Assembly (NCBI GenBank): GCA_963557075.1
Contig: CAUWDA010000007.1
Location: forward strand, 2,082-66,081
Reading direction: 5' to 3'
From: an uncultured Flavonifractor sp.
Lineage (GTDB): Bacteria > Bacillota > Clostridia > Oscillospirales > Oscillospiraceae
DNA: 64,000 nt
Below the pieces are notes generated by a model, which saw only the letters and a program-made list of their open reading frames with translations, had not been told where the DNA came from and searched no databases. Within the stretch, counting starts at the first letter, position 1, and the number at the start of each line of letters is the position of its first letter. The position numbers were made by a program, and so were the translations under genes. Shown one piece after another: positions 23,319 to 24,500 of this stretch.

Positions 23319-24304
23319 GCGTCAACAGCAATGCAATACTGCTCCTCATCATGGCCGCCGTCCTCAACGGCGTGCCCCTGCTCTACGGCACCCTGGGCGA
23401 GATCCTGTCGGAAAAGGCGGGCAACCTGAACCTGGGCGTGGAGGGCATGATGTTCATGGGCGGGGCCATGGGCCTGGGCGCGGCCTTCTACTTCGAGGGG
23501 GCGGGCGGTACCAGCGGCGTGCTGGCCGTCATCCTGGCCCTGTTCTTTGCCTTCTTGGGCGGCGCCATCGGCGCGCTCATCTACGCCTTCCTCACCATCA
23601 CCCTCCGGGCCAACCAGAACGTCACCGGCCTGGCCCTGGCCATCTTCGGCACCGGCGCGGGCCAGTTCATCGGCGAGTACATGCGGGTGAGCTCCGGCGG
23701 CTATGTGGCGGTGAGCAACAGCCTGAAGGCGGCCTTCCTCAACTCCCCCTTCCCGGCGGCCCTTCAGCAGCTTCCGGTGGTGGGCCCGCTGCTCTTTGGG
23801 CACAGCGTATTCCTCTACCTGGGCCTGATCCTGGCGGTGGGGATGCATCTCTTTCTGAGCAAGAGCCGGGCGGGCCTGTCCCTGCGGGCGGTGGGCGAAT
23901 CTCCCGCCACCGCTGACGCCGCCGGCATCAACGTCACCCGGTATAAATACCTGGCCACCGTCATCGGCGGCGGCATCTCGGCCATCGGCGGCATGGTGTA
24001 CATCATGACCATTGCCAGCTGCGTGTGGAACCACGAGGCCCTGTCCGGCGAGGGCTGGCTGGCGGTGGCGCTGGTCATCTTCTGCCTGTGGCGGCCCCTT
24101 AACTCCATCTGGGGCTCCGTTCTGTTCGGCGCGCTGATGATCCTGTACCAGCGGCTCCACCTGGGCTTCATCCCCGACGAGCTGTACAAGATCCTGCCCT
24201 ATGTGGTCACCGTCATCGTGCTCATCTTCACCTCCCTGCGCAACAGTAAGGACAAGCAGCCGCCGAACTCCCTCGGTTTGCCTTACTTCCGGGAGGAGCG
24301 GTAA
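23315..24304 (+). CDS. ABC permease (nucleoside type)
   Basis: EKAGNLNLGVEG, ANQNVTGLA, GESPATADAAGINV. Confidence 0.9.
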   Translation: MSVNSNAILLLIMAAVLNGVPLLYGTLGEILSEKAGNLNLGVEGMMFMGGAMGLGAAFYFEGAGGTSGVLAVILALFFAFLGGAIGALIYAFLTITLRANQNVTGLALAIFGTGAGQFIGEYMRVSSGGYVAVSNSLKAAFLNSPFPAALQQLPVVGPLLFGHSVFLYLGLILAVGMHLFLSKSRAGLSLRAVGESPATADAAGINVTRYKYLATVIGGGISAIGGMVYIMTIASCVWNHEALSGEGWLAVALVIFCLWRPLNSIWGSVLFGALMILYQRLHLGFIPDELYKILPYVVTVIVLIFTSLRNSKDKQPPNSLGLPYFREER

Positions 24305-24500
24305 GCCGGATTGTTTGCCAGTGTAGAAGCTGCTTGTCTTGGGACCCGCCGCAGGCGGGACGCGCCTATGGCGCGCAGGCCGGGGGAATTCACTTTCCCC
24401 GGCCGCAAATAAAATCCGGGGTTCCCACGGGACTGGTCCCGTGGGGGTCAAGCAGCCGCCCAACTCTCTGGGCCTGCCCTACTTCCGGGAGGAGCGGTAA
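24253..24500 (+). mobile_element. 196-bp unit: 144-nt structured element flanked by two synonymous variants of the permease 3' end
   Basis: 24253-24304 vs 24449-24500 (6 differences, all silent); GGAATTCA at 24385; antisense segment at 24329-24338. Confidence 0.7.

Follow-up and report, generated by a model that had tools for sequence, protein, structure and literature searches.

In a 64,000-nucleotide (nt) stretch of DNA from an uncultured Flavonifractor sp. (contig CAUWDA010000007.1; hereafter the window, numbered from its first letter), the end of an ATP-binding cassette (ABC)-transporter permease gene is present twice, and the two copies differ only at silent positions. These copies, like the duplicated ends of the xpt and mgsA genes in the same window, flank members of a family of structured, protein-less elements whose occupancy and copy number are polymorphic. 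Judged against element-free alleles, the permease copy inside the gene is the native allele and the distal copy comes from a more distant one, and copies at one locus can derive from different alleles. We give a probability of roughly 0.6 to the whole statement, that the elements form an undescribed family and that the silent differences come from functional alleles joined by recombination. For the silent-only pattern taken by itself, an origin in two alleles is likely; the way in which the elements would move is proposed much more tentatively.

Architecture of the gene-end units

The permease locus, which lies entirely on the + strand, is composed of the following parts.

23315..24304, + strand: BPD_transp_2 ABC-transporter permease gene, from its open reading frame (ORF) and Pfam family
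24251..24260, + strand: target junction GACAAGCAGC, the pairing partner of the guide (24329-24338 is its exact reverse complement)
24254-24304, + strand: proximal, in-gene tail (last 17 codons with the stop), from its translation
24305..24328, + strand: spacer after the proximal stop codon, with the sequence GCCGGATTGTTTGCCAGTGTAGAA; not the native 3′ flank
24329..24338, + strand: guide block GCTGCTTGTC, complementary to the junction
24339..24448, + strand: structured core (fold z = −4.7; nhmmer match; helix covariation in the family)
24449..24500, + strand: distal tail copy (tail 24450-24500), containing GACAAGCAGCCGCCCAACTCTCTGGGCCTGCCC, with 6 silent differences

The duplicated segment begins at 24253, and the pairing between guide and junction widens to 24248-24260 if one G-T pair is admitted. 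After the distal copy come the native flank and terminator (24503-24555). The core contains GC-rich hairpins and a conserved GGAATTCACTTTCC hairpin, with TTCAC as its loop; an A-rich, single-stranded segment then leads to the terminal hairpin, which ends in GTGGGGG and is followed by T. Runs of a 7-nt unit (GAGATAG / AGGAGAT) lie 3′ of terminators at 24553-24580, 2406-2433, 8856-8883 and 15242-15269, and those at the permease locus vary between strains in number and spelling.

The window holds four core copies detectable with nhmmer. Besides the permease and mgsA loci, on which an earlier note on this DNA had commented, there is a third locus at xpt, where the two tails are identical, and at mgsA two units stand in tandem.

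18616..18670, + strand: proximal, in-gene tail of an xpt-like phosphoribosyltransferase gene, with its stop codon at 18668-18670
18611-18624, + strand: xpt junction site GTGGAATCTCTGGC
18671..18814, + strand: xpt element, with spacer 18671-18697, guide GCCAGAGATTCCAC 18698-18711 and core 18712-18814
18815..18869, + strand: xpt distal tail copy, identical to the proximal one
3936..3876, − strand: mgsA proximal in-gene tail (stop 3878..3876)
3941..3931, − strand: mgsA junction site CTGGAGCGGGG
3470..3875, − strand: tandem pair of 203-nt units on the 3′ side of mgsA
3875..3673, − strand: mgsA unit 1, with spacer 3875..3861, guide CCCCGCTCCAG 3860..3850, core to 3734 and tail copy 3733..3673
3530..3470, − strand: tail copy that closes mgsA unit 2, which repeats the layout of unit 1

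At these loci the tail copies flank ∼140 nt with a shared architecture and only ∼60% sequence identity between loci. Starting from the gene, each unit of the family consists of a copy of the target of about 80 nt, hereafter S, which begins at a site inside the gene and extends outward beyond the gene end, a junction-complementary block of 10–16 nt, hereafter the guide, and a conserved multi-hairpin core of ∼105–150 nt that finishes with a closing hairpin-TGGGG and 1–3 nt more. The resident copy of the S segment sits after the core. S ends at the stop codon in sense units, and at the start codon with its ribosome-binding site in antisense units at gene 5′ ends; in completing the reading frame, S leaves the host gene intact. 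The proximal copies are intact reading frames in this sense, the tails ending 0–3 nt past the stop codon and the heads at or just past the start codon.

The guide spans the junction, covering 2–5 nt of the upstream flank, outside the repeat, and the first 6–10 nt of S. At the three window loci the guide blocks, 10–14 nt long, are exact reverse complements of their sites (GCTGCTTGTC of GACAAGCAGC, GCCAGAGATTCCAC of GTGGAATCTCTGGC and CCCCGCTCCAG of CTGGAGCGGGG). Exact complementarity of at least 9 nt to the junction was found in 41 of 66 units and in 29 of 1155 controls from the same loci; with at least 11 nt, the counts were 35 of 66 and 1 of 1155. The guide helix stops sharply, with no excess of G-T pairs at its ends, and G-T wobble enrichment there, used as a test of RNA versus DNA, gave no signal. 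The guide facing the junction is also the sole inverted repeat; the two ends of a unit show no such relation to one another. On the upstream side of the junction GG is loosely preferred at −3 and −2, in ∼60% of units. At the three window loci, the terminal TGGGG hairpin is followed by one base unlike that found at the proximal junction.

The guide lies ∼75–86 nt from the repeat start, a nearly constant spacing, with few outliers, that holds for coding tails of 24 or 84 nt alike, the length of the spacer compensating for that of the coding tail. The spacer after the stop codon is not native flank: an element-free permease allele of the same species (contig L004) has in that place the sequence that follows the distal copy here. 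The permease spacer recurs almost unchanged in the element of another species (L142), whose own flank differs, and the spacer in L080 resembles a 5′ untranslated region (UTR) that is native, and duplicated, in L106. These non-native, travelling spacers imply that the heritable module comprises S (∼80 nt of target, made of the coding end and some donor flank), the guide and the core. Pairing of the spacer with the A-rich stretch before the terminal hairpin occurs in the permease element and is not general in the family (mean z = −0.14).

Two kinds of irregular joint were seen. A fragment that resembles a guide and the first bases of a core follows the distal copy in L028 and is probably the remnant of a former tandem unit. 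At the boundary between S and guide in L091 and L034, the native flank matches the start of the guide over 7 and 4 nt, respectively; these shared bases could be microhomology at the joint.

At the three window loci the core keeps one order: GC-rich hairpins, a hairpin with a TTCAY loop closed by GGAA/TTCC, an A-rich unpaired stretch and the TGGGG terminal hairpin. Elements fold more stably than shuffled sequences, with z from −2 to −5 on both strands, and the sense and antisense folding energies differ by a small amount, 2 kcal/mol. In two core helices 93% of the cells are paired, compared with 29–52% for slid partners, and nine pairs show compensatory changes, with a covariation score that 0 of 500 shuffles reached. 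The covariation was computed from a trimmed alignment with a hand-specified structure, which replaced a MAFFT and RNAalifold treatment of whole elements that aligned poorly and predicted just 7 pairs. At the base of the TTCAY hairpin (alignment A3, columns 36–41 and 61–65), most members have a conserved non-Watson–Crick internal loop in which CAG faces GAG, setting G against A and A against G; it is possibly a motif that binds a protein, of the kink-turn sort. In L127 and L128 the mgsA element has lost the TTCAY hairpin through a 47-nt internal deletion between two CCGGCGG repeats; in L127 the context 3′ of that element is different as well. No Rfam 15 family matches anywhere in the window at the gathering threshold, nor anything relevant up to E = 10 in 18500-24700, which holds the xpt and permease elements, and a scan for tRNA and transfer-messenger RNA found no tRNA-like genes.

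Silent differences and the origin of the two copies

The in-gene permease tail reads AAG CAG CCG CCG AAC TCC CTC GGT TTG CCT TAC TTC CGG GAG GAG CGG TAA. As the earlier note had reported, the distal copy departs from it at exactly six sites, all synonymous (ccg/ccc, tcc/tct, ctc/ctg, ggt/ggc, ttg/ctg and cct/ccc), and both encode KQPPNSLGLPYFREER followed by the stop codon; over the three mgsA tail copies there are likewise three differing sites (gat/gac, agt/agc and ccc/cct), again all synonymous. With ∼25% of permease-tail sites and ∼21% of mgsA-tail sites synonymous, the chance of six of six and three of three silent changes is ∼2.5e-4 × 9.5e-3, or ∼2e-6. The same bias holds in 39 sense-tail units whose frame was secured by the upstream ORF and a stop codon. 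Among 743 codon pairs, 132 differ, 104 of them synonymously and 28 non-synonymously, and the nucleotide differences fall 29/14/113 on the three codon positions (113 of 156 at third positions). Synonymous changes thus make up 79% of the differing codons against a neutral expectation of ∼25–28% (p ∼1e-33), and a looser set gives a pN/pS, the ratio of non-synonymous to synonymous differences per site by the Nei–Gojobori method, of 0.15. Single units can be extreme, with 11 synonymous and no non-synonymous differences in the 27 codons of L085, nine and one in L084, and eight and one in both L039 and L014, the last including AGA AGA against CGG CGG. The mismatch spectrum is ordinary, with 138 transitions and 74 transversions.

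From these codon counts it follows that the spare copy has not been decaying neutrally in place, and both copies must have been coding sequence for most of their divergence time. The expectation that a decaying non-coding copy should collect non-silent changes is borne out, and the larger sample of loci that might have overturned the silent bias extends it. An in-place duplication followed by neutral decay, with silence by chance, would suit the identical copies at some loci (xpt, L028 and L091), but it is hardly tenable given the ∼2e-6 chance of nine silent changes in nine, the synonymous share across the family and the non-native spacer after the proximal copy. A diversity-generating retroelement would also place a near-identical copy of a gene 3′ end just downstream, the in-gene tail serving as variable region and the downstream copy as template region. 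We regard this as next to impossible here: the mismatches are not adenine-specific (A at 42 of 212 in the distal copy and 62 of 212 in the proximal), synonymous change is the opposite of diversification, and neither a reverse transcriptase gene in ∼40 kb of Pfam annotation nor a shared ORF near members was found.

The explanation that we consider likely is that the two copies would descend from different functional alleles or orthologues, each under purifying selection, which movement of the unit or recombination between lineages would have set side by side. At the permease locus, the in-gene tail is identical over 51 of 51 nt to the element-free allele L004 of the same species and to that of L139, a sister lineage with a 95% identical protein and a different 3′ flank, and close variants of it occur in L142 and L143, whether occupied or not. 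The distal tail is unique so far, sharing CTG GGC CTG with a 91% identical orthologue (L134) and TCT with L140. The suggestion that one copy came from a diverged orthologue is therefore supported in substance, with the direction reversed from that proposed: the proximal copy is the native one and the distal copy looks foreign. In other contigs of this species (L002, L005 and L006) both permease copies are identical and carry strain-specific variants. Family-wide, it is the distal copy that looks host-like somewhat more often, not significantly so, and there are clear cases in either direction, L014 and L039 standing against L085 and L011.

These comparisons also bear on the proposal that the live gene was silently recoded to escape the guide, or a guide-directed nuclease, while the distal copy stayed ancestral. 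The six permease changes do lie just 3′ of the guide-paired bases, within nt 12–30 of the tail, and the distal tail does have codons more typical of this genome, which is GC-rich at third codon positions (GC3). The in-gene tail, however, far from carrying changes of its own, is the common element-free allele of this species and its sister lineage; the guide-paired bases are the same in both copies, and the guide still matches the occupied proximal junction perfectly; and the less host-like copy can be either one. The clustering does not recur across the family, where mismatches have a flat density of ∼6–7% per position between about nt 7 and the end of the repeat, and the last 21 nt of the permease tail are nearly invariant in element-free orthologues too. 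The excess of T-containing codons noted for in-gene copies survives as a marginal trend in the family (88 versus 63 AT/GC, p = 0.05) that codon usage does not bear out (p = 0.1–0.2). Escape recoding is accordingly very improbable.

Occupancy varies within the species. Empty alleles are found at the permease in L004 and at xpt in L002, L003 and L005, the two loci being occupied independently of each other, and mgsA has one or two units depending on the strain. In related species the permease site is empty in L132, L134, L139, L140 and L143 and occupied in L142. In the element-free L143 an IS200-type Y1 transposase gene with hairpin ends (L143:1356-1877) lies immediately after the permease stop codon, at about the position of the element elsewhere, and this proximity to an empty allele is probably coincidental. 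Downstream of xpt, a 105-nt insertion (18897-19001) is present only in carriers of the xpt element (L001, L004, L006 and the window) and absent in L002, L003 and L005. The insertion, with similar motifs continuing to 19060, holds palindromes of the repetitive extragenic palindromic (REP) kind, headed by GTAGGGGC (cgtaggggccgatgtccacatcggccc), which suggests a second repeat family, of the type associated with REP-associated tyrosine transposases (RAYT/REP).

Presence and absence within a species would equally be expected if the distal copy were itself under purifying selection, coding part of the time after the unit is excised and re-integrated at the DNA level or removed from the transcript. 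A guide complementary to the uninterrupted junction, in the manner of an intron internal guide sequence, fits this possibility, as does the proximal-like third-position bias of distal copies compared between species (20/15/48 versus 17/12/50 over the three codon positions). But the empty permease allele has the proximal-type tail, and precise excision would leave the distal type; the junction base differs between the copies, and rejoining would alter a codon. Antisense units at gene 5′ ends are moreover outside the sense transcript, and Rfam has no matching intron or ribozyme. Part-time coding is in our view unlikely, though it deserves more weight than recoding or decay.

Recombination among ordinary alleles might also suffice without any mobility. 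Same-species contigs diverge by 1–3% and form mosaic haplotypes over the 21 kb around the loci. At xpt the two copies have one allele in common, that of the occupied haplotype, and this haplotype diverges from the empty one along a block of 800 bp or more. The elements would then be immobile relics, for instance 3′-UTR or leader RNA structures, and heterogeneous tails would reflect allelic exchange between strains through homologous recombination or gene conversion, with crossovers inside the conserved core. That the permease C-terminal region is common to otherwise diverged orthologues, and that core divergence tracks host divergence, agrees with this account. What it leaves unexplained is why dozens of genes have their own matching junction complement and 80-nt end copy, why the length of S is so narrowly distributed and where the foreign spacers come from, and we rate it, too, as improbable.

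Distribution of the family and comparison with known systems

A degenerate pattern of the conserved hairpin and the terminal hairpin matches at least 116 stretches in contigs drawn from one genome per species, mostly of Oscillospiraceae. The hosts are Flavonifractor, Intestinimonas, Pseudoflavonifractor, Oscillibacter, Dysosmobacter, Evtepia, Enterenecus and Acutalibacter, and a minority of matches are chance occurrences in other phyla. Among the matches listed, ∼65 have flanking direct repeats of 33–120 nt, with the second repeat 0–6 nt past TGGGG. These repeats are of two kinds, gene 3′ tails and antisense gene 5′ heads (for example those of lepA, a carbamate-kinase-like gene and truB); in head insertions the spacer on the element side provides the ribosome-binding site. 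The same genes are occupied across species, including infB, lepA, uvrB, an arcC-like gene and truB. Units are ∼200–260 nt long, and tandem arrays of two or three occur. A megaplasmid of Vescimonas fastidiosa carries two typical units within 2 kb, at a truB head and an infB tail.

Around the window loci (∼40 kb, Pfam annotation) the neighbours are ordinary chromosomal housekeeping genes. The pattern gave a single match in viral contigs, and four short unannotated virome scaffolds matched in a phage collection; one of these, MT838705.1, has truncated tandem copies beside a tRNA gene and looks like bacterial DNA. Some members depart from the gene-end layout. In L051 and L083 (Evtepia) they lie beside the 3′ end of the 23S rRNA gene, in antisense, with no detectable flanking repeat, and L137:1-201 holds truncated tandem copies without the terminal hairpin next to a tRNA gene. 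A sub-family in metagenome-assembled genomes of rabbit-gut Clostridia (contigs L015, L021, L037, L044, L045, L048, L050, L053, L062, L117 and L119) has many copies, with flanking repeats of just ∼18–26 nt (cgaaactctgcgaggc) or none; some of its cores stand head-to-tail, the first truncated in the terminal hairpin, in a context unlike that of the gene-end units.

A literature search that included the conserved hairpin sequence found no description of the family, although very recent work may have been missed. On sequence grounds the family appears to be undescribed and to fall outside the known kinds of element, and its mechanism is put forward below as a proposal. In behaviour it comes closest to gene-end integrative elements with a replacement end and to homing elements with co-converted flanks, and in the logic of recognition to the base-paired guides of IS110 bridge RNAs or IS200/IS605 ends.

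Gene-end integrative elements are phages, integrative and conjugative elements and genomic islands with attP in the 3′ ends of tRNA or protein genes, along with dusA-specific islands at a 5′ end. As with these, the units insert near the end of a conserved gene, supply a copy of that end and leave the gene intact; the displaced resident end forms a direct repeat, and the repeats can differ where donor and recipient alleles do. Unlike them, a unit is just ∼200 nt long, with no integrase in or next to it and no other gene of its own, and dozens of genes are occupied, each by a unit with a matching end copy of nearly constant length, ∼80 nt, and a junction complement. Homing introns and inteins similarly have conserved housekeeping targets and patchy occupancy among close relatives, and donor-type flanking coding sequence, with mainly silent differences, accompanies the element. 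Here, by contrast, there is no homing endonuclease gene, intron core or Rfam intron match, and the gene is preserved by duplication of its end, with no splicing as far as visible. Group I introns end in a G, at the 3′ splice site, and have a U-G pair at the 5′ one. The units mostly have C, A or T, following GGGG, as the last base ahead of the distal copy, and mostly A, following GG, ahead of the proximal copy. Group I introns were dropped as a poor fit, as were hairpin, hammerhead and hepatitis delta virus ribozymes.

Like IS110 bridge RNAs and IS1111 seekRNAs, the units contain a structured non-coding module complementary to the target across the crossover point. IS110 elements form circular intermediates and make no ∼80-bp target duplication, and the bridge RNA has split target and donor guides in two internal loops. 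The units differ in that no DEDD recombinase gene lies beside any copy (no shared ORF within 2.5 kb of 122 matches). One contiguous junction-complementary block, on one strand, was found in them, which may be a further difference. IS110-type RNA modules can, as a passage of PMC12288879 indicates, exist apart from the recombinase gene.

With IS200/IS605 elements and TnpB omega-RNAs the units share hairpin-rich ends, base pairing of the flank with an internal sequence and stems of Watson–Crick pairs only, which would fit a DNA fold, and a small non-autonomous form would be possible. In those elements TnpA reads the cleavage sites through 4–5-nt DNA guides near the end hairpins, and no target duplication results. 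Against this, and against derived palindrome-associated or miniature inverted-repeat transposable elements (PATE/MITE), the units have guides of 10–16 nt, direct repeats of 33–120 nt and no fixed 4–5-nt insertion motif, with no TnpA or TnpB gene beside them. A classical MITE was rejected for the absence of terminal inverted repeats and for a duplication of ∼80 nt in place of a short one of fixed length. Clustered regularly interspaced short palindromic repeats (CRISPR) were rejected as well, there being at most three units of ∼200–260 nt, a variable part that copies the adjacent gene and no cas genes; retron non-coding RNA, RNase P external guides and the spacing of CRISPR-associated transposons were dropped as poor fits.

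Two further variable features of the window lie away from the gene-end units. Between parA- and parB-like genes, 11316-11641 is a tandem array of ∼3.2 copies of a 98–99-nt unit, and the gap between these genes differs by ∼99 nt between L123 and L124, so the copy number of the array varies. The region ∼26500-30900, with lower GC (0.54–0.58 versus ∼0.62) and genes for a CitMHS transporter, an FAD-oxidoreductase and a LysR protein, is a strain-variable island, present in L001 and L004 and missing from L002, L003, L005 and L006.

Proposed movement and its meaning

How the units move can be proposed only tentatively, and we hold the following scheme to be possible rather than probable. The ∼200-nt module of S, guide and core would be released in one piece, plausibly as a circle that recombination of the two S copies closes, and one crossover inside S would then take it into a homologous gene end. 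Such a crossover of a circular module would reproduce every arrangement seen: after the proximal copy the spacer is always non-native and after the distal copy the flank is always native, and the foreign copy would be proximal or distal depending on where in S the crossover fell. At the permease it would have to fall within the last 21 identical nt. Recombination between copies would yield loss, as in the empty alleles, and tandem gain, as at mgsA, where unequal crossing-over may have amplified the units, while the same process or gene conversion would homogenise the copies, as at xpt and at the permease in other strains. Two occupied alleles that exchanged sequence through one crossover within the conserved core would produce the same picture.

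New loci would probably arise differently, by a ruler-like, guide-addressed event that duplicates ∼80 bp of target, the junction-complementary block marking or recognising the site on behalf of a trans-acting enzyme. That S varies so little in length and that the complement spans the junction suggests, with low confidence, that each locus was born in a dedicated event. Taken furthest, the family might be a new class of programmable, protein-less homing module, an RNA or single-stranded DNA of ∼120–150 nt with a 10–16-nt guide and a trans-acting enzyme that inserts the module together with an 80-nt gene end. This enzyme might be a recombinase or a copying system based on reverse transcription primed at the target; the ends of essential genes would be colonised harmlessly, and retargeting would come about by a joint change of guide and cargo. 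We think this rather doubtful as it stands.

Several observations weigh against an element that moves and brings alleles together. The family was gathered by a motif pattern, which biases the members that were seen. No protein gene that could be a candidate enzyme is shared within 2.5 kb of the 122 matches, where only the target genes clustered. No donor lineage for the distal permease tail was found in metagenomes of the Joint Genome Institute (JGI), with or without the in-gene junction. The xpt locus is explicable by homologous recombination of the whole occupied allele, with no element-specific mechanism. Between species, core identity is about that of the host gene, and many loci therefore look old and vertically inherited, not recently transferred; at several loci both copies share species-specific amino-acid changes, which means that ongoing gene conversion or re-insertion is needed. 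G-U pairs are rare, at 2.8%, and both strands fold, compatible with an RNA and with a single-stranded DNA form alike. Finally, plain homologous recombination as the route of integration leaves the role of the guide unexplained.

If the reading of the family given here is true, it would be a new way for selfish DNA to live in bacterial genomes, as an element lodged within the 80 nt at either end of a conserved gene, where it brings a spare gene end and a built-in address for its junction. For annotation, it would explain many of the 'duplicated gene fragments' found 3′ of gut Oscillospiraceae genes. For technology, an insertion module of ∼200 nt addressed by a guide would plainly be of interest if the guide does direct insertion. 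For the evolution of these bacteria, the silent-only signature is evidence of copy exchange between functional genes and not of decay, and since the two copies record donor and recipient alleles, they would serve as a natural marker of allele exchange between lineages.

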